A stretch of DNA of 64,000 nt from Candidatus Nomurabacteria bacterium (GTDB lineage Bacteria; Patescibacteriota; Minisyncoccia; Phycocordibacterales; UBA9973), in contig CAWHSF010000003.1 of the NCBI GenBank assembly GCA_963832025.1, positions 366,121 through 430,120 on the forward strand, given 5' to 3'. The number at the start of each line of letters is the position of its first letter. Position 1 is the first letter of the stretch. The translations under genes were made by a program, and so were the position numbers. Shown here one piece after another: positions 5,018 to 60,157 of the stretch. A model generated the notes under the pieces. It worked only from the letters and a program-made list of their open reading frames with translations, was not told where the DNA came from and ran no database searches.

Positions 5018-8000
5018 ATGAATTCTCGCTTATATCTTGGCGATGATAACAAGAAATACATCTCAACTAAAGAGGCTAGTTCTTTGACGGGTTACTCCAG
5101 AGATTATATAGGCCAACTTGTCCGAAGTAATAAGATAGATTCCCAAAAAATTGGCCGTACATGGTATGTCTCGGAGGAAGCAATTTTGAACTATAAAATA
5201 TTCTCAAATCAATTAGGGTTGGTTCCAGATGTGGCGCCAGAAAAGATCCAAAGTGAAAATTTTATTCAAAATCCGGTCGTGATTCCAGTTCCGAGTGTAA
5301 AACTTCCTGCTCCTTCCGTGTCGGGCGAAAAATTAAAAAAGAACCTAAAAAGAAAAAAAATACTTTTATCAACTTTTAGTTTTCTCCTGATAGCCGGGAT
5401 AGTCTCTGCGAGTGGTATCAATTTTAAAGAAGTCTTTAAAAATACTTTCTCCACGCCCAAAAGTTTTTTATCTGCTAGTTCAATCCAATCATTCCCCAAC
5501 AACAAAACACCGACCATAAACATTTCTGACTTGGCGACTTCATATGAAAATTATCTTACTCCACAAGTAGCAACCTCAAGTAAACCTTCTGCTCCTTCGG
5601 TTGAAAAAATTATTGAAATTGAAAAAAGTCCGGTTACGCAAACTGCTGTTCTTTCCATTTTGCAGAACTTGCTCAGCGAACCGGCAATCCAAAATGAACT
5701 TCGTGGTCCGACTGGACCAACCGGCCCAGCCGGAACTTCGGGAAGCTATGCCACCTACACCAGTTATGTGGCTCCGAATCCGGCAATCAATTATGTCGGC
5801 GCCACTTTTTCTTCCGCTTCCAATTTATCTTCCAACCTCTTGAACACCGGCACAGCCAACATAAATAATTTAGCTGTCTCCGCCGGCGCGATAATCGGAA
5901 GTTTGAATGTGACAGGAGATTCTTCTTTTGGCGGACAAGTTGTCGCCTCAACTGTTGTTGATTCCGGTTTAGTAAACCAAACTTGCATCGGCACCGATGC
6001 ATCAGGCGCATTTGAAGCCGGCACTTGTGGCAGTGGTAGTGGCAGTCAGTGGACAACTAGCGGGTCAGATATTTATTACAACACCGGCAACGTCGGCATC
6101 GGCACAACTTCACCGGCAGCAACGCTCGATGTCACCGGCACAGGTAATTTTTCCGGCGCACTGACCGCGGGAACAATTAACGGCATCACTTTCTCCGGTT
6201 CTTCCACGCCGACGCTCAGTGTCTCCGGAACGGCTTCCGTCTCTGGCGCCAACACCGGAGACAATGCAACCAACACACAATATGCAAATGACTATCGAGC
6301 AGCAAATTTTGTCGCCGGCACAGATTACCAAGCCCCCGTCACTCTCACTACCACCGGCAGTAGCGGAGCTTCCACTTTTTCTAGTAACACTTTAAATATT
6401 CCAAACTACACTCTCGCAGGTCTCGGAGGAATTTCTAATATCTCCGGTCAAGATTTAAGCACAGCCAACAATGCAACATCAAAATTTATAACTTTAGGTT
6501 CGCTTTCTGCCGGAACCGGAATTTCTTACGATAATACGACTGGGATAATTACAAATTCTGCTCCAGACCAAACCGTTGCTTTTTCCGGTGGAACAAATGT
6601 AACGATTGGTGGAACTTATCCAAACTTTACAATTACCGACAACTCCATAACTACGGGAGGAGCCAGAAGCGCAATTTCACTGACAACCACCGGAAGTTCC
6701 GGAGCCTCTACTTATAATTCGGGAACGGGTGTTTTAAATATTCCTCAATATCAAGCAGGATTGAGTTTAATTAAGGGAACTTATGTTGATGGGGATGTTT
6801 GTACTTATGCTTCTACCGGCACTCTTTTAAATTGTAATACCGCGGCATATCAAATAGCTTCTTCCGCTCTTTCTTCCATCGCCGGTCTTGCTTGGTCTTC
6901 CGGAACACCTTTCGTTAAAATGACAGCCTCCGGAACCTTTGCGCTAGATACAAATACATATGCGACCGGAAGTGGAACAGCCAGTGGCACCAACACCGGC
7001 GACCAAACACTTACCATCGGGGGCACAACTTCTCCAACTATCGCCTTATCGGGAAGCAATACAGCAACATTCTCCGCAGGAACAGGAATTACTTTAGGGC
7101 AATCGGCTGGAACGATAACAATTACAAATTCTGCACCTTTCACTGGGGGACTTCTTGCTACCGGTGCAACTACCGGTGCAACAAGCCAAGCTCAAGCGTT
7201 TACCAATGGCATAATCTCTCCGACCATTCTGGGCGGTTCAGGAACAACGCAAACACTTAACTTCCAAACTACTTCAGGGGTGGGTGCAACGGGAGCCGAT
7301 ATGCATTTCAATGTCGGCAACAACGGAGCGACGAATGCCATGACGATTTTGAATAGCGGCAACGTCGGCATCGGGACGACGAGTCCGGCACAGAAGTTAA
7401 CTGTCACTGGTGGAAATATACAAATGACTGATGCTGGGGCGAAATTGTATTTAACAGATGGCTCACATTATGTTTCTTACGACGGCACAAATACGCAAAT
7501 ATTTTCTAGTGTTGGTGGCGTCAATTTAGCAGTTAATACGGCATCTCCTATTTCATTTATAACTAATTCAGCGTACCAAATGAGGTTAAGTGCTACTGGA
7601 GGATTGTCACTTGGTTCAACCTATTATTCTACGGACGCTGGGGCAGGGAATATGATAATACAAGGCAAGGTCGGCATCGGGACGACGACGCCTGCTTATG
7701 GTTTAGATGTAGCAAAAGGGACTGGGGCAACGGCACAATTTTTTGACCAAACCGCGACCACGGGTAGCACGCTTGTTACTATTCAAGCAGGTGCGGCACA
7801 AAACGCTGGAGCTTATACAAATGTTTTGAATTTTGCTGGCAATAATGGAACGACCAGAGGGTATATAGCTGTAGACGGATTGAACGGAGTATCAAAACTA
7901 AATATTACTGATGTTGTCGCTTCAAATGGTAATTGGGAGTTAAAAGATTCGGGCTCGTTAAATATGTATGCTGGCAATTCAATCTACTTGCAAAATGCTC

Positions 8001-11000
8001 ACTCCAACTCTAATATACAATTGTATAACACTGGGGCAACGGGGGTATCGAGTCTAGCAATAATGAACGGCAACGTCGGCATCGGGACCACGGGGCCGAG
8101 TGATTTGTTGCAACTTGGCACTGGAAATTTAAGTTGGTCATCTGATGGTGGCGGTGATATTGGGGCGAGTGGAGGAAATAGACCAGGGAATATTTATGCT
8201 AAGATTCAAGTCAGGGCTGGTGCTGGTTATCTAAATGGTAATACGGTTGGAGGGAGTAGCAATTTTGCTTTGTCTGGTGGTGGTAGTGCTACTTTGACAA
8301 TTGGCGGAACAAGCAACACCATTGTTTTCAAAACTACCGCCTCTAATTCAGAGGTAATGAGGATAGAACCAATAAACGGCAACGTCGGCATCGGGACGAC
8401 GACACCGACGGCTTACTTAAACATCAAAGCAGGAACAGCCACAGCTAACACCGAACCTCTACAACTTACCGCTGGAGTATTAAACACCTCCGCCGTCTCC
8501 GGAGCATTAGAAACAGATGCAAGTAACAATTTATATTACACACCGGGTACAGGAACGAGAGGAATTATTCCTTTGGGCACAGCGGCAAATACTTTGCTCT
8601 TTACTACTACTGGTGCGACGAATGTGACTTTACCAACAAGTGGAACGCTGGCAACACTTGGTTCTCCAACTTTCACTGGCACTGTCACCACACCGGCTTT
8701 AACCATTTCCGGTATCACCGGCAGTACCCAATGCTTACAAGTCAACAGCAGTGGTGTGGTCAGTGGCACATCTGCAGCTTGTGGCGGAGGTGGTGGTTCA
8801 ACTGCTTGGAGCAGTATCACCAACCCAAGCGGAAATCTTTCTTTGGCAATGGCTGGTGACACCAGTACTTTCACTTACGGAGCGACAACCGGTTCAGCAA
8901 ACTTGTTCAACTTAACCGACACCTCTTCCAATACCGGCACTGGAGTTTTGTTGAATGTCTCAACTGCCAGTGGTTCTACTTTAAATCCTTTCTCCGTGAC
9001 TACCGCCGGTGCAACAAATCCGAGCTTGTATGTCGGTTCTAATGGTAACGTTTCAATTGGAACCTCAATTACAAATACTGCAGTTCTGCAAGTACAAGCA
9101 CCGGTTCCGGAGAGTAGTCTTTTTGCTTTTGCGAACCATGATTTTTCTCTGGGTAGCGTAGGAACTGCCATGACGATTGATACCGGAGCTACCTCCGGAG
9201 ATACCTATGTGGATATGCAAGCTTACAACGCTGGTGGAGTTAATGGCGGTCCTTTAGTTTTTAATGCTGCTGGTGGTAATGTCGGGATTGATACAAACGA
9301 CCCAACTACCGCTCTCACCGTTAATGGGAGTATGTCCAATCTCCTTAATCCCAGTTCAGCTTTTTTAAATGTTGTAGGTTCGACATCAATTACTTCTGCT
9401 TCCGTGGTCTACGTCTCCGGTAACTATGCCTATGTGGCAGATTATACCGGTAATGAACTTGATATTGTTGACATTACCAATCCGAATGCTCCCTATGTGG
9501 CTGGCACATTAAGCGGAATTAATCATATCTCTTCCATCTACGTTTCCGGTCGTTATGCCTATGTGACGGACAAAAGTATTGGTGACATGACTATCATTGA
9601 TGTTTCCAATCCGATTTCACCGACTGTGGTCGGTACATTAACCGGACTTAATACTCCTACCTCCATCTACGTTTCTGGTCGTTATGCCTATGTAGCGGAT
9701 AGCGGTAGTGGTGATATGTATGTGATTGATGTTTCCACTCCGAGATTACCGATTGTGGTTGCCACCTTAACCGGGCTGAGTAGTCCTTCCTCCATCTATG
9801 TTTCCGGTCATTATGCCTATGTAGCAGATAGTGGTAGTGGTCACATGTCTATCATCGATATTTCCGATCCGGTTTCACCGAATGTGATAGGTACAGCAAC
9901 CGGACTTGGTAGTCCCTCCTCTGTCTATGTCTCCGGTCGTTATGCCTATGTGACGGATACGGGTAGTGGTAACTTGTATTCCATTGACCTTTCCAACCAA
10001 GCTTCTCCGAGTGTGGTTGGTACGCTACCAGGATTTATTACTCCAACTGATGTCTATGTTTCTGGTAATTTTGCATATGTAACAGACAGTGACGGTGAAC
10101 TCGACGTCGTTGATATTTCCGACCCGACTACTCCGATTTATGATACATATGCAGGACTTACTGCTCCCGACTCGGTCTATGTCTCCGGTCAGTATGCCTA
10201 TGTCGCGGATAGTGGTGGCGGCGATATGGCTGTCATTGACCTAACCGGAACACAAACAACTTCCTTGACCGCCGGGAGTGCGAACATCGGCAACTTGCAG
10301 ATTGCTAATGATTCTTTGGTTGGTGGTCAACTGCAAGTAAATGGTGCCCTGACAGCCAACGGTGGAAACTTTAACAGTGGAGTTGCAGTAAATGGAAATA
10401 TTTCCAATACCATTTCATCTTCTTCTCCTCCGACTGTCGTTGCTACTGCCACCGGGCTGACTAATATCTTAACTGACTATGTCTCCGGTAACTATGCGTA
10501 TGTAGGAACTGGTACCGGTGGTACTGGTCATATGTATATCGTTGATATTTCCAATCCGACTGCTCCGAGTGTTGTCGGTACATTATCAGGGGTTGGTAAG
10601 ATTAATTCTATCTATGTTTCCGGTCAGTATGCCTATGTGTTAGATGATAGTAATGGCTACATGGATGTCGTTGATATTTCCAATCCGCATGCCCCAAGTG
10701 TTGTCGGTACAGTGGTAGGGTTTACTGGTCCTGTATCTATCTATGTTTCCGGTCATTATGCCTATGTGACAGATGCCAATTCTCTGACTTTGTCTGTCAT
10801 CGATGTTTCCAACCCGACTGCTCCGAATCTCATCGGAAGTCCATTGTCGCTGACTGCTCCTCTCTTCATCTATGTTTCCGGTCATTATGCCTATGTGACG
10901 GAAAGTGGTGGGAGCATGGATATCATTGATGTTTCCAATCCGTATTCTCTGAGTATTGTCGGTACAGCCACAGGACTTGGTTCTCTTGATGGCAATGTCT

Positions 11001-12514
11001 ATGTCTCCGGTCGTTATGCGTATGTAACAAATACTGCTAGTAGTGGTGATATGTATGTCGTTGATGTTTCCAATCCAGTTTCTCCAAGTACTGTCGGTAC
11101 ATTAGGACTTTCTTGGCCTCTTGGTATCAATGTCTCCGGTCATTATGCCTATGTGACGAGTTATGCTGGTGGTGGCATGTATGTCCTTGATGTTTCCAAT
11201 CCGACTGCTCCAAGTGCTGTTGCTCTTACACTCGGACTGACTACTCCTTCTTTTATCAGGGTTTCCGGTCGTTATGCCTATGTGGTGGAATCTACTGCTA
11301 GTTCCATGGCTGTCATTGACCTCACTGGTACCCAAACAACTTCTCTCACCTCCGGTAGTGCTAACATCGGTAACTTGCAAATTGCTAATGATGCTTTGAT
11401 TGGTGGTCAACTGCAGGTGAATGGTGGTTTGACGGCAAGTGGTGGAAACTTTTCGGGGGATGTGGCGACTGAGGGATCCTTAAACATTGCTGGATATGTA
11501 GGTATCGGGACGACGATGCCGGACAATCCTCTTACTGTTAACGGCGCAGCGGACAATACTACCGGTGTATGGTCTGTATTTTCTGATGAACGCTTGAAAA
11601 ATATTGACGGCAACTTTAATGATGGCTTGTCCACCCTGATGCAGTTTAATCCGGTTACGTTTACCTATAATGGACAAAATGGAATTTCGGACACTACTAC
11701 ACAGCAAATTGGTATCGTTGCTCAAGACGTGCAACAATTTGCTCCATATATGATAAATACAGTGGAAGGGACATTGAACGGACAGCCTACGAGTCTACTT
11801 CAATTCAACCCGCAAGCATTGCCATATATCACCATCAATGCAGTTAAGGAATTGAATCTAGATTTAGATGCGATTTCGGGATTGACGGTGCCGACTCCGA
11901 CTCCGGAATCTACCAGTTTTGCAACTGCGTTCTTTAAAAATATTGAAACTAAACTTATTGCTTGGTTTGCTGATGCTGGGAATGGAATAGGAGATTTGTT
12001 CGCTGGAACAATTCACGCTACAAATGAACTATGTATCAACACCACTTGCGTGACTCAAGCACAACTGCAAGCACTTTTGGCAAATTTAAATTCAAACGGA
12101 AACGCAGGAAACAATACGTCTGCCAATGCAGGCGAAAATAATTCAAATGTTCAAAATCCGCCTTCCAGTATTCCCGTAATCACTTTGATTGGTGATGCCA
12201 CCATTAATTTAAATGTCGGAGATACTTACACTGAACAAGGAGCAACTGCCACCGAAAATGATAATGCAGTCGCGGTTGTTATCAGCGGGACGGTAGACAC
12301 AACCACTGCCGGCACTTACACTGTTGATTATGATGCGACGGATTCTGCCGGGAACAAAGCGGTTGAAGTTACGAGAACAGTGATTGTTGCAAATGCGCCA
12401 GTTTCAACTTTTTCGTCGGACTCAGGATCTACGGCTACGCCTGCGACAACACCAGATTCAACAACAGCTAATTCCACAACCACTCCAGATTCTAGCACTT
12501 CAACTTCAAACTAA
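5018..12514 (+). CDS. Giant (2498 aa) membrane-anchored surface protein. Domain order: N-terminal excisionase-type HTH, one TM helix, short collagen-like GPT run, tail-fibre-like GNVGIGTTSP repeats, two 7-repeat LVIVD blocks, S74-type intramolecular chaperone domain, Ig-like domain, Thr/Ser-rich tail.
   Basis: Single uninterrupted ORF. HTH: YISTKEASSLTGYSRDYIGQLVRSNKIDSQKIGRTWYV. TM: LLSTFSFLLIAGIVSASGI. Collagen-like: GPTGPTGPAGTSG. Seven G(N/K)VGIG(T/D)T motifs. Fourteen YVSGxYAYVxD...(V/I)(V/I)D(V/I)SNP repeats. S74 domain: SDERLKNI...GIVAQDVQQFAPYMI. Ig-like: ITLIGDATINLNVGDTYTEQGATA...AGTYTVDYDATDSAGN. Confidence 0.85.
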   Translation: MNSRLYLGDDNKKYISTKEASSLTGYSRDYIGQLVRSNKIDSQKIGRTWYVSEEAILNYKIFSNQLGLVPDVAPEKIQSENFIQNPVVIPVPSVKLPAPSVSGEKLKKNLKRKKILLSTFSFLLIAGIVSASGINFKEVFKNTFSTPKSFLSASSIQSFPNNKTPTINISDLATSYENYLTPQVATSSKPSAPSVEKIIEIEKSPVTQTAVLSILQNLLSEPAIQNELRGPTGPTGPAGTSGSYATYTSYVAPNPAINYVGATFSSASNLSSNLLNTGTANINNLAVSAGAIIGSLNVTGDSSFGGQVVASTVVDSGLVNQTCIGTDASGAFEAGTCGSGSGSQWTTSGSDIYYNTGNVGIGTTSPAATLDVTGTGNFSGALTAGTINGITFSGSSTPTLSVSGTASVSGANTGDNATNTQYANDYRAANFVAGTDYQAPVTLTTTGSSGASTFSSNTLNIPNYTLAGLGGISNISGQDLSTANNATSKFITLGSLSAGTGISYDNTTGIITNSAPDQTVAFSGGTNVTIGGTYPNFTITDNSITTGGARSAISLTTTGSSGASTYNSGTGVLNIPQYQAGLSLIKGTYVDGDVCTYASTGTLLNCNTAAYQIASSALSSIAGLAWSSGTPFVKMTASGTFALDTNTYATGSGTASGTNTGDQTLTIGGTTSPTIALSGSNTATFSAGTGITLGQSAGTITITNSAPFTGGLLATGATTGATSQAQAFTNGIISPTILGGSGTTQTLNFQTTSGVGATGADMHFNVGNNGATNAMTILNSGNVGIGTTSPAQKLTVTGGNIQMTDAGAKLYLTDGSHYVSYDGTNTQIFSSVGGVNLAVNTASPISFITNSAYQMRLSATGGLSLGSTYYSTDAGAGNMIIQGKVGIGTTTPAYGLDVAKGTGATAQFFDQTATTGSTLVTIQAGAAQNAGAYTNVLNFAGNNGTTRGYIAVDGLNGVSKLNITDVVASNGNWELKDSGSLNMYAGNSIYLQNAHSNSNIQLYNTGATGVSSLAIMNGNVGIGTTGPSDLLQLGTGNLSWSSDGGGDIGASGGNRPGNIYAKIQVRAGAGYLNGNTVGGSSNFALSGGGSATLTIGGTSNTIVFKTTASNSEVMRIEPINGNVGIGTTTPTAYLNIKAGTATANTEPLQLTAGVLNTSAVSGALETDASNNLYYTPGTGTRGIIPLGTAANTLLFTTTGATNVTLPTSGTLATLGSPTFTGTVTTPALTISGITGSTQCLQVNSSGVVSGTSAACGGGGGSTAWSSITNPSGNLSLAMAGDTSTFTYGATTGSANLFNLTDTSSNTGTGVLLNVSTASGSTLNPFSVTTAGATNPSLYVGSNGNVSIGTSITNTAVLQVQAPVPESSLFAFANHDFSLGSVGTAMTIDTGATSGDTYVDMQAYNAGGVNGGPLVFNAAGGNVGIDTNDPTTALTVNGSMSNLLNPSSAFLNVVGSTSITSASVVYVSGNYAYVADYTGNELDIVDITNPNAPYVAGTLSGINHISSIYVSGRYAYVTDKSIGDMTIIDVSNPISPTVVGTLTGLNTPTSIYVSGRYAYVADSGSGDMYVIDVSTPRLPIVVATLTGLSSPSSIYVSGHYAYVADSGSGHMSIIDISDPVSPNVIGTATGLGSPSSVYVSGRYAYVTDTGSGNLYSIDLSNQASPSVVGTLPGFITPTDVYVSGNFAYVTDSDGELDVVDISDPTTPIYDTYAGLTAPDSVYVSGQYAYVADSGGGDMAVIDLTGTQTTSLTAGSANIGNLQIANDSLVGGQLQVNGALTANGGNFNSGVAVNGNISNTISSSSPPTVVATATGLTNILTDYVSGNYAYVGTGTGGTGHMYIVDISNPTAPSVVGTLSGVGKINSIYVSGQYAYVLDDSNGYMDVVDISNPHAPSVVGTVVGFTGPVSIYVSGHYAYVTDANSLTLSVIDVSNPTAPNLIGSPLSLTAPLFIYVSGHYAYVTESGGSMDIIDVSNPYSLSIVGTATGLGSLDGNVYVSGRYAYVTNTASSGDMYVVDVSNPVSPSTVGTLGLSWPLGINVSGHYAYVTSYAGGGMYVLDVSNPTAPSAVALTLGLTTPSFIRVSGRYAYVVESTASSMAVIDLTGTQTTSLTSGSANIGNLQIANDALIGGQLQVNGGLTASGGNFSGDVATEGSLNIAGYVGIGTTMPDNPLTVNGAADNTTGVWSVFSDERLKNIDGNFNDGLSTLMQFNPVTFTYNGQNGISDTTTQQIGIVAQDVQQFAPYMINTVEGTLNGQPTSLLQFNPQALPYITINAVKELNLDLDAISGLTVPTPTPESTSFATAFFKNIETKLIAWFADAGNGIGDLFAGTIHATNELCINTTCVTQAQLQALLANLNSNGNAGNNTSANAGENNSNVQNPPSSIPVITLIGDATINLNVGDTYTEQGATATENDNAVAVVISGTVDTTTAGTYTVDYDATDSAGNKAVEVTRTVIVANAPVSTFSSDSGSTATPATTPDSTTANSTTTPDSSTSTSN

Positions 12515-12515
12515 A

Positions 12516-12563
12516 CCTCACCCCTCTCCAAAAATAATTTTTTGGAGAGGGGAAAGGGGTGAG
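12516..12563 (+). terminator. GC-rich hairpin after the giant gene (family B-like sequence)
   Basis: cccctctccaaaaa-taat-tttttggagagggg, with an alternative outer pairing ctcacccc/ggggtgag. Confidence 0.5.
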
Positions 12564-12681: not shown

Positions 12682-14778
12682 ATGGCAAAAGAGAAAGAAG
12701 ACAAAAAAGGTGGCGACAAAAGCCACCATTATGATGCCTCCGACATCTCGGTTTTGGAGGGTCTGGAGCCGGTTCGACGCCGTCCGGGCATGTATATCGG
12801 TACGACGGGGCCGGAAGGCTTACATCATTTGATTTGGGAAATTTTTGACAACTCTCGTGATGAAGCGATGGGTGGTTTTTGTGACGATATTGAAATTGTG
12901 CTTTTGCCAAACAACCGCATACGCGTCGCCGACAACGGCCGAGGCATGCCGGTAGACATTCATAAAAAAACCAAAGTCTCCGCGTTGGAGACAGTCATGA
13001 CGACACTGCACGCCGGAGGAAAATTCGGCGGTGACCATAGTGGCTACAAAGTTTCCGGAGGTTTGCACGGTGTCGGCGCTTCGGTAGTGAATGCGCTTTC
13101 TATTTTTTGCGAAGCGAGAGTTTGTCGAGACGGTGGTGAATACCGACAAGAATATTCGGAGGGCAAAAGAAAATCCGCGGTTAAAAAAATAGCGTCTTCA
13201 AAATTGCATGGCACGATTATCACTTTTGAACCGGATAAAAAAATTTTTGGTGATATTAAATTTGATTGGAATACCATTGTCGCTCATATTCGCCAACAAG
13301 CTTATTTGGTGAAAAAACTGAAAATTTTAATTATTGATGCGCGTGAATGGGACAATAATAAAGGTATGAATGAATCCGACGTTTTTTATTTTCGGGACTT
13401 GAGGCTGGAACTTCCGTCGGTCTCTTTTTATTTTGAAGGCGGATTGGTTTCTCTCGTAAAATATTTGAACAAATTTCAAAAGCCCGTCCAAAGCAATATT
13501 TTTTATGTTGAAAAAGAATTGGATGGTGTCGGTGTGGAGATAGCTCTGCAATATGTAGATGATATTTCCGAACGCATCATTCCTTTTGCAAACAATATCA
13601 ATACTCCCGAAGGTGGCACCCATGTGACTGGTTTTAAAACAGCACTCACTAGAACTTTGAATACTTACTGCAAGAAAAATGAAATGATGAAAGAGTCCGA
13701 AGGCGGATTTACCGGCGAAGACGTCTTGGAAGGTTTGACGGCGGTCATTTCTGTAAAATTGCGCGAGATACAATTTGAAGGTCAGACTAAAGCAAAACTC
13801 GGTAGTATGGAGGCGCAAGGCGCGGTGGCGACAGTTTTCGGCGAAGCCTTCGCAAATTTCTTGGAAGAAAATCCGGACGAAGCAAAAATAATCATCAACA
13901 AATCCATTCTTGCCTTAAAAGCCCGCAAAGCCGCCAAAGCCGCCAAAGATTCCATCCTCCGCAAGGGTGCTTTGGAAGGGATGACTCTTCCGGGGAAACT
14001 CGCAGACTGCCAGAGCAAGAATGCATCCGAATCCGAACTATTCATCGTGGAGGGAGATTCCGCAGGTGGTAGTGCCAAACAAGGACGCGACCGTCGCACT
14101 CAAGCTATTTTGCCACTTGCGTGGAAAAATTTTGAATGTTGAACGCGCGCGCATTGACAAAATGCTCGCTTCCAAAGAAGTGAAATCGCTTGTCATTGCC
14201 ATGGGTACATCCATAGGAGATACCTTTGATATAGACAAAATGCGTTACCATAAAATAATCATCGCGACCGATGCCGACGTGGACGGTTCCCACATCAGCA
14301 CATTGCTTTTGACTCTTTTCTATCGATATTTTCGCCAAGTGATTGACGCGGGATATATTTACATCGCGCAGCCTCCACTATATAAAATAAAAAAAGGCAA
14401 AGAAATTTTTTATGCTTACACTGATGAAGAAAAAGTAAAAATTATCGGCAAAAATGCGGATGTGAGTGACATTGAGGAGGTGGAAGATGAAGAACCCCTA
14501 CCCGACCTCCCCCTTGTTAAGGGGGAGGAGAAGAGGAGGAGGGTCTAGAGAAAAAATCCACTAAAATTCACATTCAGCGATATAAAGGTCTCGGAGAAAT
14601 GAATCCAGAAGAACTTTGGGAGACGACCATGGATCCTGCACATCGCGTGCTCAAGCAAGTGATGATTAATGACGCCGAAGAAGCCAACAAAATTTTTGAT
14701 ATTCTCATGGGCTCCGAAGTTCCTCCGCGTAAATCTTTCATTCAATCCAATGCGAAACTAGCGGAGATTGATATCTAA
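12682..14778 (+). CDS. gyrB: DNA gyrase subunit B. The reading requires two frame changes.
   Basis: Motifs [70 protein letters not shown] and [19 protein letters not shown]. The frame changes near 14117 (extra base between CTT and CGT) and returns in the G5 run at 14521-14525, inside a palindromic insert. Confidence 0.9.
14506..14528. repeat. Family B palindrome inside gyrB
   Basis: cctccccctt-gtt-aagggggagg. The 10-bp stems are identical to the smc copy. Confidence 0.85.
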
Positions 14779-19245: not shown

Positions 19246-21417
19246 ATGCGTCTCAAGACCCTTCAATTAAATGGTTTTAAATCATTTGCCCAAAAGACAG
19301 TTTTAGAATTCGAAAGCCCTATTGTTTCCATCGTCGGGCCCAATGGATCCGGAAAATCCAATATTGTGGAAGCTTTTCGTTTTGTCTTAGGTGAACAATC
19401 CATGAAATCCATGCGCGGAAAGGGTGGTTCAGACCTTGTGTTTAAGGGTTCAAAAAAACTGTCAGCCGGTTCTAAAGCTTCTGTCTCTATTTATTTTAAT
19501 AACACCGATAAGGTGTTTAAATTATCCAACGACGGAGGAGATGAAATAAATCTAAATTACGACACCATTTCTATTTCTCGCGAAGTTTACTCCGACGGAC
19601 TTAACAAATATATTTTAAATGGTTCGGAGGTTAGACTGAAAGATATTCACAATTTGCTTGCCTCGGTGAACATCGGTTCTTCCGGACACCATATCATCTC
19701 TCAAGGCGAGGCAGACAGAATTTTAAATGCAAACACGAAAGACAGGCGTGAGATGGTTGAGGATGCGCTTGGATTGAAAATCTATCAATATAAAATTAAA
19801 GAATCAGAAAGAAAACTGGAAAAGACAAATGAGAACATGAAAGAAGTTGTTCTTCAGCGTCGAGAAAATGTTCCGCATTTGAATTTTTTGAAAAAACAGG
19901 TAGAGAAATTTGAAAAGACGAAAGAAATGCAATCGGAGCTAGCAGTTCTCTATAAAGAATATTTAAAAAAGGAAAGTGTTTACTTAGAACAAGAAAAAGA
20001 AGCGCTCGGAGCAGAGAGAAAAAAAATTTCAACTGAGTTAAAGAGCGTGGATGAGAAAATTTCTATTATTGAGGACAATGACCCCCTCCGTCATTCTGAC
20101 ACCTCCCCCTTATTAAGGGGGAGGATTGGTGGGAGTTCTTCTTTAGAAGAACTCAGACTGCTCGAGCAGAAAATAAATTCTTTACGAGCAAGTAGAGGAG
20201 AACTTGAACGTAAACTCGGACGCATTGAAGGAATCTTGGAATCTAGAGCAAATAAAGTTCAAATTTCTGGTAGGTGTCCGCTTTGTGGTAGTGAAATTAA
20301 AGAAAATGCCGAGCAGATAGAAAAAAAACATAATGAAGAAAAAGAACTTGAAGAATTAAAAGTCTCACAAGCAAATGCGTTATCGGAAATAAAAAAGATT
20401 GAAGCGGAAGAAAAAGAGGGAATCAGTTCGGCGGAAAAATTGAAACAGGACATAAACAAGGAGATGGAAGCTTTGCGTGATTTGGAACGCGAGAAATTTG
20501 CTTTCAAAGTGCGTCACCAGGAGCTAACGTCTGCCTTAGAACTCGTAGTTATTAAGGAAGGGAATTTACATAGTCGCACAGAGGCTTTTGAACAAGAAAT
20601 AAAAGAAGGCGCAGTCTTGATCGGACAAGAAATTTATTCTTATAAAACTTATGAAGTCACAGAAGATGTTTTGGGTCATATTCAAGAAGAGCAGAGAAAA
20701 AAAATTGAACGTATCAAGATAAAATTGGAAGATACCGGTTTGGGGAATGGAGCCGAGCTTATGAAAGAATTTCAAGAAGTCTCCGAACGAGATCAGTTTT
20801 TGGCAAAAGAGATGGAAGATTTGGAGAAAAGCATCGAATCATTGAAAAAATTGATTGCAGACTTGAAAGAAAAAATTGACATAGAATTTAAAGAAGGCGT
20901 GAAAAAAATAAATGTGGAGTTCCAGGAATTTTTCTCGCTGATGTTTGGCGGAGGGCACGGTTCTCTTTCTATTATTGAAATTAAAAAGAGAAAAGTGAAT
21001 GAAGTGGATGAGGATGGGGAGGAGATAACTGAGATGGAAGATGAAGAAGACGAAATGCCGGAAAAAGGAATAGAAATAAATGTTTCTTTGCCGCATAAAA
21101 AAGTGAAAGAACTGAATGCTTTTTCGGGCGGAGAACGCTCGCTCACATCTATCGCGCTTCTGTTCGCCATGTCGCAAGTGAATCCGCCACCGTTTCTGGT
21201 GCTGGATGAGACAGATGCCGCGCTCGATGAATCAAATTCCCGTAAATACGGCGATATGCTTGAAAAACTTTCCGAACATTCTCAGCTTGTCGTTGTTACC
21301 CACAATCGCGAGACGATGTCTCGCGCCGGGATACTTTACGGCATCACTATCGGTTCCGACGAAGCTTCCAAACTTCTTTCTGTAAAATTCGAAGAAGCCA
21401 CGCAGATTGCAAAATAG
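19246..21417 (+). CDS. smc: SMC-family ATPase, short (723 aa) and hingeless, with a central CPLC motif
   Basis: N-terminal head: GFKSFAQKTVLEFESPIVSIVGPNGSGKSNIVEAFRFVLGEQS. C-terminal head: FSGGERSLTSIALLFAM...FLVLDETDAALD...VVTHNRETM. About 375 aa of Lys/Glu-rich coiled-coil-like sequence with GRCPLCGSE at aa 342-350 and no hinge-like Gly-rich domain. Confidence 0.8.
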   Translation: MRLKTLQLNGFKSFAQKTVLEFESPIVSIVGPNGSGKSNIVEAFRFVLGEQSMKSMRGKGGSDLVFKGSKKLSAGSKASVSIYFNNTDKVFKLSNDGGDEINLNYDTISISREVYSDGLNKYILNGSEVRLKDIHNLLASVNIGSSGHHIISQGEADRILNANTKDRREMVEDALGLKIYQYKIKESERKLEKTNENMKEVVLQRRENVPHLNFLKKQVEKFEKTKEMQSELAVLYKEYLKKESVYLEQEKEALGAERKKISTELKSVDEKISIIEDNDPLRHSDTSPLLRGRIGGSSSLEELRLLEQKINSLRASRGELERKLGRIEGILESRANKVQISGRCPLCGSEIKENAEQIEKKHNEEKELEELKVSQANALSEIKKIEAEEKEGISSAEKLKQDINKEMEALRDLEREKFAFKVRHQELTSALELVVIKEGNLHSRTEAFEQEIKEGAVLIGQEIYSYKTYEVTEDVLGHIQEEQRKKIERIKIKLEDTGLGNGAELMKEFQEVSERDQFLAKEMEDLEKSIESLKKLIADLKEKIDIEFKEGVKKINVEFQEFFSLMFGGGHGSLSIIEIKKRKVNEVDEDGEEITEMEDEEDEMPEKGIEINVSLPHKKVKELNAFSGGERSLTSIALLFAMSQVNPPPFLVLDETDAALDESNSRKYGDMLEKLSEHSQLVVVTHNRETMSRAGILYGITIGSDEASKLLSVKFEEATQIAK
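20102..20124. repeat. Family B palindrome inside smc
   Basis: cctccccctt-att-aagggggagg, with GC-rich flanks. Translated as [11 protein letters not shown]. Confidence 0.85.
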
Positions 21418-24003: not shown

Positions 24004-25998
24004 TTATACTAAAATATAATCTATTGTTTTTCTTTCTAAATCAACTGCCTTCACTTTTATTTTTATTTTATCTCCCAAGCGATAGTGTTTTTTCTTTTTC
24101 TGCCCGATTAGTTCCAATTTTTTTTCATTGAAAACATAAAAATCGTCTTGCAGATCTCGCATTCGCACCAACCCTTCGCATTTTGTGTCTATTTCTTCCA
24201 CATACATGCCCCACTCTGTCATTCCGCTAATTACTCCTTCAAAAATTTTTCCTAAACGCTTACTCATGTATTCCACTTGTTTATATTTTATGGAAGCGCG
24301 TTCCGCATCCGAAGCGCGTTTTTCTTGCTCGGAAGCTATTCTACTCATCTTTTCAAATTCAATTAACTTTCCGACACTATTTTTTTTCTTAGCTAAATGA
24401 TCGGCCAACAACCTATGAATCATAATGTCCGGATATCGGCGAATCGGAGAAGTGAAATGCGTGTAGTGTTTAAATGCGAGTCCGTAATGTCCGATATTTT
24501 TCGTGGAATAAATGGCTTTGGCCATAGACCTTATCACTGCACGTTGCACAGTGTCTCTGACTGTCTCATTTGCACTTTTTCCTTCCAAACTTTCCAAGAG
24601 TTTATTTATTTCATGCGTTGGGATAATTCCATTTTGCAAAGAAATTTTATATCCCAAACTTTTCAGGAAAAATGCCAAGTCAGCCATTTTTTCTTTAGAG
24701 GGCAAGTCATGTACTCTATATATTGAGACGTTGTCATTTTCCGCCTCTCCGGCGGATCGCCGATGAGGCGATTTGGGAGACAAAACTTCGGCTACTTTTT
24801 TATTCGCCAAAAGCATGAATTCTTCAATTAGTTTATTTGAATCGCCGCGTTCTTTTTTAATTACTTTTATCGGCACACCTTTTTCATCTAAGACAAATTT
24901 TACTTCTTCTTGGTCGAGCGATATCGCGCCGGAGGCAAACCTTTGCTTGGTTAATTTTTTTGCCAAATTATTTAAAATGGAAAGTTCTTTATGGAGAGGA
25001 GAGCCTACTTTATGAATGGAAATTTCTGCTTCTTCGTAAGTAAATCTTTTTTGTGAATGAATTATCGTGCGTCCAAACCATTCGCTTTGCACTTGCGCAT
25101 TCTTATCAATTACAAAAACCGCGCTCATCGTCAGCCGGTCTTTATGGGGAACCAAACTACATAAATCATTGGAAAGAATTTCCGGCAACATCGGTATCGT
25201 TCTGTCCACCAAATAAACCGAAGTTCCTCTTTCACGTGCTTCTATATCTAGCGCACTGCCCACTTTGACATAATGTGACACATCGGCAATATGAACTCCG
25301 ATTTCATAGACCTCACCCCCTAGCCCCCTCTCCTTGTCAAGGAGAGGGGGAAGAATTTTGAAAGAAATTGCATCATCAAAATCTTTCGCGTCCGAGGGGT
25401 CAATCGTGAAAGTCAAAATTTTTCTAAAATCACGGCGTCCCGCATAATCACTTTCTTTGATTCCGGCTTGTTTTATTTTTCTCGCTTCTTCTTCCACTTT
25501 ATGCGGTAGCTCCGAATCAAAACCTTTTTCCATGGCGATGGAATGCATTTCCGTGTTATTATCGCCGGGACGTCCTAAAATTTTTACCACTTTTCCGAGC
25601 GGAGCCTTTTTGGCGTCCAACCACGAAATTATTTCCACAAATACTTTTTGCCCAAGCTTGGCACCATTTAATGATTCTTTTGGAATTAAAATATCGGTAT
25701 AAATTTTCGTATCATCGGGTCGCAAAAAAGTCATTCCATTTTCTGTCTCTAAAACTCCGGAAAAACCGATTTTTGCGCGAGAAATTATTTTTGTGACTTC
25801 ACCATTTGTGCGATTTTTATTTTTTGGATGAAGAATTATCTCCACCGTGTCTCCATGCAGGGCAGTATTTAAATGCCTCCCATCAATTTCTATATCTTCT
25901 CCATTTTTAGCGATTTTGTCGTCCAAAAGCTTTACGTAGCCTGTGCCCTTTGAGGAGATGGAAATGGTGCCGTGTAACTTATTTGTAAATCCTTTCAT
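24004..25998 (-). CDS. rnr: Ribonuclease R. The ATG at 25998 is preferred over the upstream TTG at 26034.
   Basis: Cold-shock-like N-terminus, RNB motifs (TIDPSDAKDFDDAIS, VHIADVSHYV, RGTSVYLVDRTIPMLP, HFTSPIRRYPD) and a C-terminal S1 domain (FEGVISGMTEWGMYVE). Confidence 0.9.
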   Translation of the reverse strand: MKGFTNKLHGTISISSKGTGYVKLLDDKIAKNGEDIEIDGRHLNTALHGDTVEIILHPKNKNRTNGEVTKIISRAKIGFSGVLETENGMTFLRPDDTKIYTDILIPKESLNGAKLGQKVFVEIISWLDAKKAPLGKVVKILGRPGDNNTEMHSIAMEKGFDSELPHKVEEEARKIKQAGIKESDYAGRRDFRKILTFTIDPSDAKDFDDAISFKILPPLLDKERGLGGEVYEIGVHIADVSHYVKVGSALDIEARERGTSVYLVDRTIPMLPEILSNDLCSLVPHKDRLTMSAVFVIDKNAQVQSEWFGRTIIHSQKRFTYEEAEISIHKVGSPLHKELSILNNLAKKLTKQRFASGAISLDQEEVKFVLDEKGVPIKVIKKERGDSNKLIEEFMLLANKKVAEVLSPKSPHRRSAGEAENDNVSIYRVHDLPSKEKMADLAFFLKSLGYKISLQNGIIPTHEINKLLESLEGKSANETVRDTVQRAVIRSMAKAIYSTKNIGHYGLAFKHYTHFTSPIRRYPDIMIHRLLADHLAKKKNSVGKLIEFEKMSRIASEQEKRASDAERASIKYKQVEYMSKRLGKIFEGVISGMTEWGMYVEEIDTKCEGLVRMRDLQDDFYVFNEKKLELIGQKKKKHYRLGDKIKIKVKAVDLERKTIDYILV
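25324..25350. repeat. Family B-like palindrome inside rnr
   Basis: ccccctctcctt-gtc-aaggagaggggg (12-bp stems). Translated on the minus strand as PPLLDKERGLGG, between the DDAIS and VHIADVSHY motifs. Confidence 0.8.
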
Positions 25999-26041
25999 AT
26001 TTATAAGCATACTATATAAGGCTAAATTACCCAAACTGAGC

Positions 26042-26115: not shown

Positions 26116-27075
26116 TTGAAACGGTATTTCACACTGGTAGTACTCGCCCTGGCAATGGCTTTGGCGACTGGCGTGCCAGCAATGGCACAAGCAGTGGTGG
26201 ATCACTTCAAAACCCCCGGGGAATGCTTGACGGCGAGGGTGCCTTACACGCCGTCTATTACGAGGCCAAAGCCACTGGTTGATGGGGAATCATTGATCCC
26301 CAACAGAAACGGCGGTTGCGCTGACATGACTCTTCCTGATCGTCTCGGCGGTCGTGGTTGGGTCTTCGTAACAGGCGACATTATCGACGGCAAAAAGGGT
26401 ATGCGCTACCAACCATGCGGGAATACAGTGTTTGCGTTCATTCCTGTGGAGCCGACACCGACACCGACGCCCAGTACTCAACAGGCCGACAACGACGAGG
26501 ACAATGCTCCGCCTCAACGGCAACCACAGATTATTTTGGTGCAGTCACCTCCTGTTAATGTGACTGCGATAAGCGGTGGTAGCGGCGGGAATTATACTCC
26601 TGCTGCGTACGACGGCCAAGAAGGGAATTACTCCTGCAATCCGGCAGGGCTCCTTGCAAGTTGCGACAGCTATGGTAGTTGTCGCACTATGTATCCCGTT
26701 CAGCAATGTGGTTCGGGACAAGGTGGCTACGGCTACAACGATGGCAACGGCTACGGCGGGGGCGGTGTGATGATCAACGGGGTGTTGGTCATCGGCGGCA
26801 ACGGCTATGGTGGCGGTTATGGCGGTGGCTACGGCGGTCGTGGCGGCTATGGCGGTCGTGGCGGTGGCTACGGCGGAGGTCGTGGTTATCGTGGCGGCGG
26901 CGGTTATCGTGGCGGCGGCGGTTATCGTGGCGGCAATGGCGGCGGCAACCCACGTCCGAAGGGGGGGCCAGTACGGCCAGTTGGTGGCGGCGGCGGTGGA
27001 AGGTCAGGCGGCGGATCGCTTCCGCCCTCTAACGGAAGCCGCTCCTTCAGTCGCGGAGGAGGTGGACGCCGGTAA
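26116..27075 (+). CDS. Secreted Cys-containing protein with a Gly/Tyr/Arg-rich (GGYGGRGG / GYRGGG) C-terminal tail. Encoded on a GC-rich compositional island. TTG start.
   Basis: RBS gaggaggt lies 6 nt before the TTG. Signal peptide: MKRYFTLVVLALAMALATGVPAMAQA. The reading frame is kept over 960 nt of sequence far more GC-rich than its neighbours. Consensus promoter directly upstream. Confidence 0.7.
   Translation: MKRYFTLVVLALAMALATGVPAMAQAVVDHFKTPGECLTARVPYTPSITRPKPLVDGESLIPNRNGGCADMTLPDRLGGRGWVFVTGDIIDGKKGMRYQPCGNTVFAFIPVEPTPTPTPSTQQADNDEDNAPPQRQPQIILVQSPPVNVTAISGGSGGNYTPAAYDGQEGNYSCNPAGLLASCDSYGSCRTMYPVQQCGSGQGGYGYNDGNGYGGGGVMINGVLVIGGNGYGGGYGGGYGGRGGYGGRGGGYGGGRGYRGGGGYRGGGGYRGGNGGGNPRPKGGPVRPVGGGGGGRSGGGSLPPSNGSRSFSRGGGGRR
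26884..26937 (+). repeat. Perfect 18-bp tandem repeat (GGTTATCGTGGCGGCGGC) x3, encoding GYRGGG
   Basis: Read directly at 26884-26901 and 26902-26919. The third unit ends in aat. Confidence 0.85.
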
Positions 27076-37273: not shown

Positions 37274-39016
37274 ATGAACTCTCCCGTTCAAAAAATTAAG
37301 GAGAGACTGACAATTGAAGAATTAGTCTCTTCTTATATAAAGCTCGACAGAGCGGGCGCAAATCTAAAAGCTCGATGTCCTTTTCATAATGAAAAAACAC
37401 CTTCCTTTTTTATTTCGCCTGACCGGGGAACTTATTATTGTTTTGGTTGCGGAGCGTCCGGAGACATATTTACTTTTGTCGAAGAGTTTGAAGGGCTTGA
37501 TTTTAAAGGAGCCTTAAAAATGTTGGCGGATAGAGCCGGAGTACAACTAGAACATTTTAACCCAAAAGACAAGGAGAATAAGAGTGAAAAAGAAAAGCTT
37601 TATGAGGTAATGGAAGAAGCGACTTTATTTTTTGAAAAAAATTTAAATGTAAACAAAGAAGCTTTGGAATATATTAAATCTCGTGGGGTAAATGAGAAAA
37701 GCATTGCTGATTTTAGAGTCGGATACATCGCACCAGACTGGCGATTGCTTTATACTCATTTGAAAAACAAAGGTTTTTCTGATGGAGAAATAGAAAAAGC
37801 TGGACTCGCTAAAAGAGTGGATAAAGGCCTGCCTGCCGGCAGGCAGGGAATGTATGACAGATTTCGCGGAAGAATCATGTTTCCAATTGCAGACTCTAGT
37901 GGGCGCATAATTGCTTTTTCAGGCCGGCTTCTTGAAGCCGGCCTGTCCGCCGAAGCTTTAGCGAAGGCGGGCGCTAAGTATCTTAATAGTCCGGAAACAC
38001 CAATTTTCAGTAAAAATGCCGTACTTTATGGCATAGACAAAGCCAAAGATTCCATTCGCAAAAACAATTTTTCTATTTTAGTGGAAGGACAAATGGATTT
38101 GATTATGTCCCACCAAGCAGGCTATAAAAACACCGTTGCGACATCCGGCACCGCTTTGTCGGATTCAACCGTATCTAAAGAACGGGTTGTTTCTAATTTG
38201 GGATTGATTCGCAGACTGTCTCCAAATATTGTTCTGGCTTTTGACGCCGATAAAGCAGGAGCCAATGCGACAATCAGGGCAGGCAACATAGCTTTGTCTT
38301 TAGGTATGGATGTAAAGGTTGCAAAGATGGGGGATGGAGTTGACCCAGCGGATTTAATATCGAAAGAAGGAGTAGACGCATGGAAGCAAGTCGTTCGTGA
38401 AGCTAAACATATTATAGAATTTCTCCTAAATAAAGTTTTAAATACTTCTCGGAATGATACTCGCAAAACAGGCAGGGAAATAAAAGAAAAAATATTGCCG
38501 TTTGTAAACGCCCTGGAGAGTTCAATCGAGAAAACATATTTCATAAAAAAAATCAGTGATTTGTCAGGAATTCCGGAACCTGCGCTCCAAGACGATTTGC
38601 GAAAAATTGAACAGGAATTAAAATACGAAAAAGAAGAAATAAAAGAAGCAGATAATGCTCAAAATAAATTATACAGAAAAGATTATATAGAACGTAAACT
38701 TTTAGGCATTGCTTTTTGGAAAAAAGATTCTGAGATTTTGGAAAAATTGGCTCCCATTGTAAAAAAATATGAAAATATAAAAGAAGATTTAATTTTTGAA
38801 GCGGAAGTTTTTTACGCAAATGATGAAAATTTGGAAAAAAGCGTTAATGAAATGTTTATAAACTTGGAAGAAGAAGATATTAATGCAGAATTGAATAAAA
38901 AAATGACAGAGTTGAAGCAAAATACAGAGGAGGAAAAAGGGAAGTCGATTCTGAAAGAGATAAATGAATTAAATAAAAAGAAAGAAGAAATTAAAAACGG
39001 TCGCTTTAAAAAATAA
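37274..39016 (+). CDS. dnaG: DNA primase, with three short palindromic in-frame insertions and a Lys/Glu-rich tail
   Basis: Zinc finger [30 protein letters not shown], plus [25 protein letters not shown] and TOPRIM motifs EGQMDLI and [10 protein letters not shown]. Confidence 0.9.
37828..37847. repeat. Family C 20-bp perfect palindrome inside dnaG
   Basis: CCTGCCTGCCGGCAGGCAGG, translated as LPAGRQG. Identical to 60124-60143. Confidence 0.9.
37922..37971. repeat. Two adjacent GC-rich hairpins inside dnaG
   Basis: ggccggctt-cttg-aagccggcc, then tccgccgaagctttagcgaaggcggg (family D). Translated as [17 protein letters not shown], just before the conserved KYLNSPET. Confidence 0.7.
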
Positions 39017-50860: not shown

Positions 50861-52108
50861 ATGAGACAATCTAAACTTTTTACAAAAACCAGAAAAGAAA
50901 GCCCGGCGGACGAAGTTTCCAAGAATGCGGAATTTTTAATCCGTGGAGGCTTTGTGCACAAAGAGATGGCGGGGGTGTATAGTTATTTGCCGTTGGGTTT
51001 GCGAGTATTGCGAAAAATCGAGAATATCATCAGGGAAGAAATGAACAAGGTTGGTGGACAAGAAGTCTTGATGTCCACGATGCAACCGAAAGATAATTGG
51101 GAGAAAACCGGTAGATGGACCGCGATGGATGATTTGTATAAAGTCGGAGATTCTTCCGGCAGAGAAGTTGCACTCGGTCCCACTCACGAGGAAATTGTAG
51201 TTCCTATTTTGAAAAACTATGTCACATCCTATAAAGATTTTCCGGTGGCTGTTTACCAGATTCAAAATAAATTTCGTATGGAACTTCGCGCAAAATCCGG
51301 AATGTTGCGAGGCCGCGAATTTATCATGAAAGATATGTATTCCTTTCATACCTCCCAGGAAGATTTTGAACAATTTTACGAAAAAATGAAAGATGTTTAT
51401 AAAACAGTTTTTAATCGAGTCGGTATTGGGCATCTGACCTATCTTACTTTTGCTTCCGGTGGAACTTTCTCAAAATATTCTCACGAATTTCAGACAATTA
51501 CAGGAGCTGGTGAAGATACTATCTATATAGATGAAGGAAGTGGGCAAGCAATTAATCAAGAAATTTCCGGCGATGATGAAGTTTTAACCGCTCTGAATTT
51601 AAGCGCAGAAAAACTAGTTGAACATAAGTCCATCGAAGTCGGAAACATTTTTGATTTAAAGACTAAATATTCAAAACCATTCGATTTATCTTTCACCGAC
51701 GAAAAAGGCGAAAAACATATTGTTTTGATGGGTTGTTATGGAATTGGACTCGGTAGGCTTATGGGTACGGTGGTAGAAGCTCTTTCCGATGACAAAGGGA
51801 TTATTTGGCCGGAAGCTGTGGCACCTTTCATGGTACATTTTCTGGCTCTCGGAGGGGACGAAGCAGTTTCCAAAGAAGCGGAGAAAGTTTATGAAAGCTT
51901 GGAAAAGGCCGGTGTGGAAGTTTTATTTGATGACCGTAAAGATATTTCTGCGGGGGAAAAATTTTCCGATGCGGATTTACTCGGTATTCCTTATCGTGCC
52001 GTTGTCTCCGCTCGCAGTTTAAAAGAGAATGGAATTGAATTAAAAAAACGTTCAGAAGAAAAAGGGAAAATCGTAACTCTAGAAGAATTATTGAAAGTTT
52101 TAAAAATA
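50861..52108 (+). CDS. proS: Proline--tRNA ligase, short form without the INS editing domain. There is no stop codon before mreB in this assembly.
   Basis: Motifs MRQSKLFTKTRKESP...AEFLIRGGF, YQIQNKFRMELRAKSGMLRGREFIMKDMYSF and GCYGIGLGRLMG, plus the anticodon-binding C-terminus. Confidence 0.9.
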
Positions 52109-60103: not shown

Positions 60104-60157
60104 TCGGGAGTAGCTCAGCGGTACCTGCCTGCCGGCAGGCAGGGGGCGGTCGCCTGT
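60104..60157 (+). pseudogene. Orphan 5-prime half of tRNA-Asn (acceptor to anticodon positions 34-35) carrying a 20-bp palindrome in the D arm
   Basis: tcgggagtagctcagcggta[cctgcctgccggcaggcagg]gggcggtcgcctgt matches the intact tRNA-Asn 5-prime half at 60415-60448, apart from the insert and one substitution. Confidence 0.75.
60124..60143. repeat. Family C 20-bp perfect palindrome inside the tRNA-Asn 5-prime fragment
   Basis: CCTGCCTGCCGGCAGGCAGG, inserted relative to the intact tRNA-Asn D arm. Confidence 0.9.

Follow-up and report, generated by a model that had tools for sequence, protein, structure and literature searches.

Rickettsia palindromic elements (RPE) lie in frame in housekeeping genes and add a short peptide without destroying the protein (PMC10969869). 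They are ~100–150 bp long (PMC10969869) and are confined to Rickettsia. REP/BIME sequences are GC-rich imperfect palindromes (REP, 20–40 nt) that occur in many copies and in both orientations and form stable stem-loops (PMC3733652). REPs are extragenic by definition, and a GTAG or CGTC head is found on most of them. Bacterial MITEs (Correia/NEMIS, ERIC, BOX, and others) are non-coding, dispersed, and bounded by terminal inverted repeats, and they sometimes give rise to intragenic in-frame fusions (PMC10969869). Their typical length is 100–400 bp.

Herein, we analyzed a GC-rich nested palindrome of ~55 nt in the gyrB gene of a 64-kb stretch of DNA, referred to as the window. The closest described parallel to this element is RPE. 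Like RPEs, it is a short palindrome with many copies, is found in frame in unrelated housekeeping genes, and is patchy at orthologous sites. However, it is shorter than RPEs, adds ~18 amino acids, and forms a GC-rich nested hairpin in an AT-rich genome. Its 23-nt core is found in many phyla, whereas RPEs occur only in Rickettsia. With REP/BIME sequences, the element shares GC-rich palindromic arms, many copies, both orientations, and stable predicted stem-loops. But its copies in the window and many of its copies in the candidate phyla radiation (CPR) lie inside long ORFs, and the ends of the complete copies are (A)GACCCC at the start and GGGGTC(T) at the close, with no GTAG or CGTC head seen. 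The element is also non-coding and dispersed and has terminal inverted repeats, as MITEs do, although it is shorter than typical MITEs, and neither a parent IS nor a target-site duplication was identified for it.

The reading frame of gyrB changes within this element, and programmed frameshifts are a second group of systems with which the locus can be compared. In prfB, the +1 shift takes place at CUU-UGA with a Shine–Dalgarno (SD)-like sequence 3 nt upstream. In dnaX, the −1 shift uses A-AAA-AAG together with an SD sequence and a downstream hairpin, and at sites of this type the stimulatory structure is located 5–9 nt downstream of the slippery heptamer. The gyrB locus resembles these systems in that a stable hairpin and a purine tract of SD-like character are close to the frame change, and in the CUU codon at its first shift; however, none of the defining parts is where it should be, and the shifts are not conserved in the orthologues. 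Frame changes can also come from consensus errors of long-read sequencing or pyrosequencing. As in the window, such errors split many conserved genes by single-base changes, mostly in A/T runs of 4–6, and leave the pieces otherwise intact.

RESULTS

Gene context and the two frame changes in gyrB

According to Pfam matches, gene order, and protein matches, the window is a Nomurabacteria/Paceibacterota (CPR) chromosome segment with a GC content of 39%. The gene order is pheS-pheT, a 2498-aa surface protein, gyrB, thrS (on the minus strand), nusB/NUDIX, rnc, smc, and onward. In a collection of 5.8 billion proteins, the nearest GyrB proteins are named Nomurabacteria/Paceibacterota and are 91% identical overall and 95% identical outside the linker. 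Two intact gyrB orthologues were used as the reference: one from GCA_026395895.1, a different Nomurabacteria species (L001, with the GyrB protein P0075), and one from a JGI contig (L002). The pheST-gyrB-thrS synteny is conserved, and the gene order of the window is collinear with that of L001 and L002. The 120 closest relatives served as the GyrB comparison set, and the parts of gyrB were named from the Pfam domains of GyrB relatives. The coordinates of all features are listed in Table 1.

The N-terminal part of gyrB is covered by the ORF 12682..14142, which has 86–93% amino acid identity to the intact GyrB of L001/L002. DNA alignment revealed that both L001 and L002 read CTT-CGT where the window reads CTT-G-CGT, and this site lies in unique, highly conserved sequence. 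The TOPRIM segment downstream of the additional G is out of frame; nevertheless, it contains no stops and has 86–89% amino acid identity to its orthologues. The displaced segment is thus still under purifying selection, or was so until very recently.

The second break corresponds to 1 nt missing or 2 nt extra within 14521–14545, which is a 25-nt purine tract. Thus, gyrB has two disruptions, +1 at 14119 and then +2/−1 in this tract, with a net change of +3. Frame 1 is shared by the first 479 codons and the C-terminal tail, and only 14120–14545, the TOPRIM core, is displaced. An earlier reading made from the sequence alone had let the TOPRIM frame end at TAG 14546–14548, which was confirmed, and had placed the switch between this stop and a TAA behind which the frame of the tail opens. 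The switch must indeed lie between the two stops. However, the TAA is at 14518–14520 and not at 14517–14519, and after this correction the interval is 14521–14545.

Comparison with gyrB of sister genomes, which the sequence-only reading had proposed, was carried out. L001 and L002 lack the G at 14119, the element of L001 is in frame, and all 120 of the closest GyrB proteins are encoded by single ORFs (685–714 aa), with a broken gyrB in 0/120. Across these relatives, the linker that joins TOPRIM to the C-terminal tail is acidic, and both its length and its sequence vary. The palindrome had been assigned to this variable acidic linker, ahead of the conserved tail, and the alignment with the 120 relatives agrees.

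Table 1. Positions in the window of the gyrB parts, the palindromic element, and other broken genes
Feature	Position	Strand	Remarks
gyrB, first 479 codons (ATPase, transducer, TOPRIM start, up to ...RRTQAILPL)	12682..14118	+	Frame 1
Extra G (CTT-G-CGT)	14119	+	+1 shift inside the invariant QAILPL/RGKILNVE motif; outside any homopolymer
gyrB, TOPRIM core and linker (RGKILNVE...)	14120..14548	+	Frame 2; stop TAG 14546–14548; ORF 14021..14548
Interval of the change from frame 2 to frame 1	14521..14545	+	Between TAA 14518–14520 (frame 1) and TAG 14546–14548 (frame 2)
gyrB, C-terminal tail (...AEIDI*)	14549..14778	+	Frame 1, as the N-terminal part; 93% amino acid identity to L001/L002
Core perfect palindrome CCTCCCCCTT-GTT-AAGGGGGAGG	14506..14528	+	10-bp stem, 3-nt loop, 23 nt; in gyrB
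Nested palindromic repeat AGAACCCCTACCC-GA-[core]-AGAAGAGGAGGAGGGTCT	14491..14546	+	~55 nt; outer arms ACCCC.../...GGGT; gyrB acidic linker
smc copy of the element	20080..20134	+	Core 20102–20124; different outer arms; inserted in frame in smc
pheT	near 3246		Extra A in A5 run; FDX-ACB domain continues in another frame
trmD	near 28735		A6 run; Pfam positions 3–76, then 83–191
Histidine kinase	near 48445		A4 run
proS	52103–52107		A5 run; stop lost, fused to mreB
mreB			Pfam positions 1–213, then 219–324
mreC, probably broken	near 53480
tgt	54838		Extra T in T4 run

The palindromic element and its copies

The core palindrome of gyrB had a fold energy of −18.1 kcal/mol (z = −3.2). The sequence-only reading had stated that this 23-bp core (14506–14528) and the smc copy (20102–20124) are one loop base apart. 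This proved correct, as only the first loop base differs (ATT in smc vs GTT in gyrB), and 100 dinucleotide shuffles of the window gave 0 matches to the core. The RNA fold energy of the nested gyrB element was −27.1 kcal/mol, and the predicted RNA structures were nested hairpins of −27 to −30 kcal/mol. The palindrome was not flagged in a terminator scan and has no T tail.

Fifteen complete copies were collected from the window and GTDB genomes. They consist of (A)GACCCC(T/C)(A/C)CCC, a spacer of 2–4 nt, CCTCCCCCTT-NNT-AAGGGGGAGG, and then AGAAAGGAGGGGGT(CT), and are found in both orientations. In the general form AGACCCC(T/C)(A/C)CCC - 2–4 nt - CCTCCCCCTT NNT AAGGGGGAGG - AGAAAGGAGGGGGTCT, the right-hand end is written as AGAAAGGAGGGGGTCT. 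Terminal inverted repeats are present, with the consensus AGACCCC...GGGGTCT, and the window gyrB copy has AGAACCCC...GGGTCT. In the GTDB species-representative genomes, the core was found at more than 119 loci, whereas 21 fixed bases would be matched ~0.3 times by chance in 596 Gb. The core matches listed are prominently from CPR lineages, and they also include Cellvibrio, Pseudaeromonas, Aliivibrio, Clostridia, Nitrospirae, and others; the window's own genome is not among the matches listed. There are two cores in the window and at least five in the genome of L001 (at L001, L013 with two, L042, and L048).

Many of the CPR copies lie deep within ORFs of 250–730 aa, where they are read as ...PLP(N/D)LPLxKGEEKGGG... 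or ...SPLxRGRxGGG.... Two frames of the element are free of stops and encode the Pro/Gly/charged peptides LPLxKGEEKGGG and SPLxRGRxGGG. The frame is kept in unrelated host genes, including smc (window and L034), gyrB (L001), tgt (L026), and other ORFs of 250–730 aa, with the window gyrB as the exception.

The element was then compared at orthologous sites. The element recurs in gyrB of L001, at precisely this linker site, and smc of L034, another species, carries it at exactly the position of the window's smc copy; it is absent from smc of L001 and L002. Between the window and L001, 48 of the 54 positions of the gyrB element are identical, vs 78% for the rest of the gene. For the smc element of the window and L034, the identity is 53/55, vs 79% for the rest of the gene. 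Thus, the element is 89–96% identical between species, vs 78–79% in the surrounding genes. Within GyrB, the carriers are the window and P0075, and the element is absent from 118 other relatives, including the nearest relatives of each carrier (95% identical to the window and 94% identical to P0075, respectively). Among the 120 GyrB matches, P0075 has the lowest similarity to the window outside the linker. Neither element boundaries nor a target-site duplication could be defined at the empty sites (L002 gyrB; L001 and L002 smc), which are too diverged in the linker.

Position of the second frame change

Three repairs fit the positions of the stops: G5 to G6 at 14521–14525, GGG to GGGG at 14541–14543, and removal of 2 nt from 14529–14544. 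The sequence-only reading had regarded the G5 run as the obvious place of the switch. An undercall of this run is conceivable, and the G5-to-G6 repair would give a plausible acidic linker reading GGGEEEEG. However, the G5 run pairs perfectly with C5 in both copies of the window, so it is not an evident anomaly.

The length anomaly lies elsewhere, in 14529–14544. Between the core and GGGT, the right flank measures 13–14 nt in all 14 other complete copies and 16 nt in the window gyrB copy. Seven of these 14 copies have exactly AGAAAGGAGGGGGT in this flank, and several of the others differ from it by single substitutions. The flank of the window gyrB copy, AGAAGAGGAGGAGGGT, equals the consensus AGAAAGGAGGGGGT with an added G (14533) and an added A (14540). 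Compared with the 14 other complete copies, the window gyrB element has exactly 2 nt more, and this excess is in the purine tract 3′ of the core, outside the G5 run. When G 14533 and A 14540 were deleted, one frame was obtained from 14120 to the end of the gene, and the resulting linker compares with KGEEKGGGLESKQSTK in L001. Of the three repairs, the comparison within the family favors the removal of 2 nt from 14529–14544.

Other broken genes in the window

The conserved housekeeping genes of the window contain ~10 frame disruptions, the two of gyrB among them, which corresponds to approximately one per 6–7 kb. The breaks are mostly at short A/T runs (A4–A6, T4), and the length changes are in both directions. 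Outside gyrB, break sites lie near 3246, 28735, 48445, 52105, 52775, 53470, and 54838. In all the cases tested with Pfam (pheT, trmD, mreB, and tgt), the pieces are well conserved and the profile coordinates are consecutive across the break. A serine recombinase is also present, in three or more pieces.

DISCUSSION

Origin of the frame changes

We infer that the two breaks in gyrB most likely stem from indel errors in the consensus of the assembly and that gyrB is most likely a single ORF. The dispersed repeat element that overlaps the second break is real. This is suggested by the many essential genes that are broken at such density in one window: gyrB, pheT, and proS are essential, and they cannot all be dead in a viable cell. 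When 64 kb contain ~10 length changes of a single base, most of them at short runs of A or T, this is the signature of a long-read or pyrosequencing consensus that has not been polished. A GC-rich hairpin in an AT-rich genome is also a typical trouble spot. The sequence-only reading was right that the frame shifts inside the palindrome in the sequence as given, but this shift is most probably a consensus error, one of many, and the break at 14119 had been overlooked. A misjoin at the repeat was considered as the cause and rejected, with the break at 14119 lying in unique conserved sequence and the gene order being collinear with L001 and L002. Two metagenome scans, with the gyrB-specific left junction of the element and with the unusual right flank of the window, gave 0 matches and thus no same-species sequence for comparison. 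Likewise, no recorded protein was an exact match to the 486-aa gyrB fragment, thrS, or rpoB of the window.

Some features of gyrB do not fit this picture. Unlike typical consensus errors and most breaks of the window, neither the G at 14119 nor either of the putative extra bases in the element is a simple homopolymer change. In addition, these three inserted bases fall within 425 nt of gyrB, denser than the window average, and sum to exactly +3. Under the error reading, this density and this sum would be a coincidence. Because of this dense non-homopolymer cluster, a small weight is left on real mutation and a very small one on recoding. If the indels were real mutations, gyrB, together with pheT, trmD, mreB, tgt, and others, would be a recent pseudogene, or the assembly would have captured a defective minority haplotype. 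We consider this unlikely. The breaks are present in the sequence as given, replication slippage also yields indels in homopolymers and purine tracts, and the related JGI contig L002 has a split pheT as well (481 + 109 aa), at a different position. However, gyrB, pheT, and proS are essential single-copy genes, found in conserved synteny (pheST-gyrB-thrS), and none of the 120 relatives has a broken gyrB. The pieces also keep high amino acid identity with no secondary stops in the correct frame, so that many essential genes would have had to start decaying at the same time and extremely recently.

It is highly improbable that the indels are real and are bypassed by recoding. In that case, the element would make the essential gyrB dependent on two slips, a +1 slip at CUU-G (14116–14119) and then a −1 or +2 slip in the G/A-rich tract (14521–14545), made by the ribosome or by RNA polymerase. 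The dosage of CPR gyrase would then be set by two coupled frameshifts, one of them made by a mobile repeat. In principle, a single polypeptide could result, as the shifts total +3. At CUU-G, tRNA-Leu could re-pair on UUG, and known +1 sites with such re-pairing are CUU-UGA of prfB and CUU-AGG of Ty1. The tract is also rich in SD-like sequences (AGGGGGAGGAG), with three AGG codons ahead of the stop. But at 14119 the context is CCA CUU GCG UGG, in which the A-site codon GCG is neither a stop nor a known hungry codon, and the upstream sequence GCUAUUUUGCCA has no SD-like stimulator. At the second site, the zero-frame codons of 14519–14548 are AAG GGG GAG GAG AAG AGG AGG AGG GUC UAG, with no X XXY YYZ heptamer, and only a single-tRNA G-GGG slip is conceivable. 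The sole strong structure, the palindrome at 14506–14528, is upstream of or overlaps the interval, and the sequence downstream is AAAAAATCCACTAAAATTC. No Rfam family matches the region (14050–14700, no match at E ≤ 1). The orthologous element of L001 is read straight through, and neither shift is found in any relative. Transcriptional slippage rescue of the endosymbiont type involves an A/T homopolymer at the frameshift that is at least about 9 nt long; the broken sites have runs of at most A4, A5, A5, A6, T4, and G5, and 14119 is outside any run. A single gene would need two different recoding events, which would still leave the breaks in the other genes to be explained. With seven or more other genes of the window broken at unrelated sequences, a general cause is far more economical.

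The sequence-only reading had left a choice between a miscalled homopolymer and a real slippery site that the element creates. The ~10 breaks in housekeeping genes give good support to an error, although the comparison does not favor the specific G5-to-G6 change. The slippery site is unsupported: there is no heptamer, the hairpin is not downstream, 0/120 orthologues need a shift, and 14119 would also need recoding. As a consensus error, the frameshift most likely matters only as a quality flag for the window and probably for the whole assembly. At approximately one indel per 6–7 kb, gene calls split essential genes, and calls of a "pseudogene" or of "recoding" are unsafe until polishing.

Nature of the element

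The ~55-nt non-coding nested GC-rich palindrome is a member of a dispersed family, and many copies of this family are found in genomes of Nomurabacteria and other CPR bacteria. In its behavior, it resembles a small repeat that is non-autonomous and mobile or recombining, comparable to REP, MITE, and RPE sequences. We infer this mobility from the multiple copies, the inverted ends, the patchy presence at orthologous sites, and a conservation above that of the host gene. Neither a RAYT (Y1 transposase) gene nor another cognate transposase was found among the ORFs scanned in the 64-kb window. In literature searches for the core and for in-frame palindromes of Patescibacteria, no description of the element family was found.

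Genes tolerate the element where it falls within a segment that is variable and flexible; in gyrB, it sits in the acidic linker from TOPRIM to the C-terminal tail. The family is of modest interest as an RPE/REP/MITE-like repeat, and the frameshift is of low interest. The element is found repeatedly in frame in flexible segments of essential CPR proteins (GyrB, SMC, Tgt, and others), which is a parallel to RPE in a lineage that is very different but likewise genome-reduced. The gene of RNase R carries a different GC-rich palindrome, in frame. The element could serve for studying how selfish repeats shape protein linkers.

Frame disruptions in gyrB and other conserved genes

A second frame disruption of gyrB was found at 14119, where an extra G (CTT-G-CGT) lies in the invariant QAILPL/RGKILNVE motif. 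This shift and the break in the palindromic element of the acidic linker add up to +3, so that the TOPRIM core alone is out of frame. Seven more frame disruptions were found in conserved genes of the window, with A4-A6 or T4 runs at most sites, and in the genes tested (pheT, trmD, mreB, and tgt) the Pfam profile coordinates run on across the break, indicating that the consensus sequence of the window is indel-prone. The pheT gene is also split in the related JGI contig L002 (8221-9979; 481 + 109 aa), at a position different from that in the window.

Positions of disrupted genes, palindrome-bearing genes, the recombinase fragments, and a neighbouring ORF in the window
Feature	Position	Strand
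pheT, frame disruption	~3246	
RNase R gene	24004-26034	minus
trmD, frame disruption	~28735	
dnaG	37274-39016	
Histidine kinase gene, frame disruption	~48445	
proS, stop disruption	52103-52107	
mreB, frame disruption	~52775	
mreC, probable frame disruption	~53470	
tgt, frame disruption	54838	
Serine-recombinase gene, at least three fragments	60677-61964	minus
411-aa ORF	62438-63673	minus

Palindromic repeats within genes

In locus L026, the tgt gene carries the same palindromic element as gyrB in frame (556-578; VSKIIPLPNLPLNKGEEKGGGPERF), whereas tgt of the window lacks it. At the linker position that the element occupies in gyrB, other GyrB relatives (P0094, P0062, and P0072) have different Pro/Gly-rich inserts, such as ELPTPEGVGTPTSPEENVG and EKSPTRSPTLGAGGN; palindromic repeats of other kinds may thus have inserted repeatedly in the acidic linker of GyrB.

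The RNase R gene contains a GC-rich perfect palindrome, CCCCCTCTCCTT-GTC-AAGGAGAGGGGG (25324-25350), which is read in frame as the peptide PPLLDKERGLGGEV. Alignments to L001 and L002, related loci with intact gyrB, are interrupted at the same point, which suggests that the palindrome is an insertion. Two further GC-rich palindromes lie in frame in dnaG, namely CCTGCCTGCCGGCAGGCAGG (37828-37847) and CAGGCCGGCTT-CTTG-AAGCCGGCCTG (37920-37945). Since an exact second copy of CCTGCCTGCCGGCAGGCAGG occurs between tRNA genes at 60124-60143, this palindrome is a member of a second small repeat family.

Other features of the window

Upstream of gyrB, a giant ORF of 2498 aa (5018-12514) with many VSG(R/H)YAYV(T/A)D...IDVSNP-type repeats probably encodes a surface protein. 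Between it and gyrB lies a possible terminator, a hairpin with 19-bp arms, CCTCACCCCTCTCCAAAAA/TTTTTGGAGAGGGGAAAGG (12516-12557), whose C-rich/G-rich character is like that of the palindromes within genes. At 26116-27075, GC content peaks locally (57% vs. 39%) over an ORF for a Gly/Arg/Tyr-rich low-complexity protein (GGYGGRGGYGG...) without a Pfam match.

In the segment 59529-63673, five clustered tRNA genes come first, then the fragmented serine-recombinase gene and the 411-aa ORF, which has no Pfam match. This region resembles an integrated element, either degraded or riddled with errors, that adjoins tRNA-Asn.
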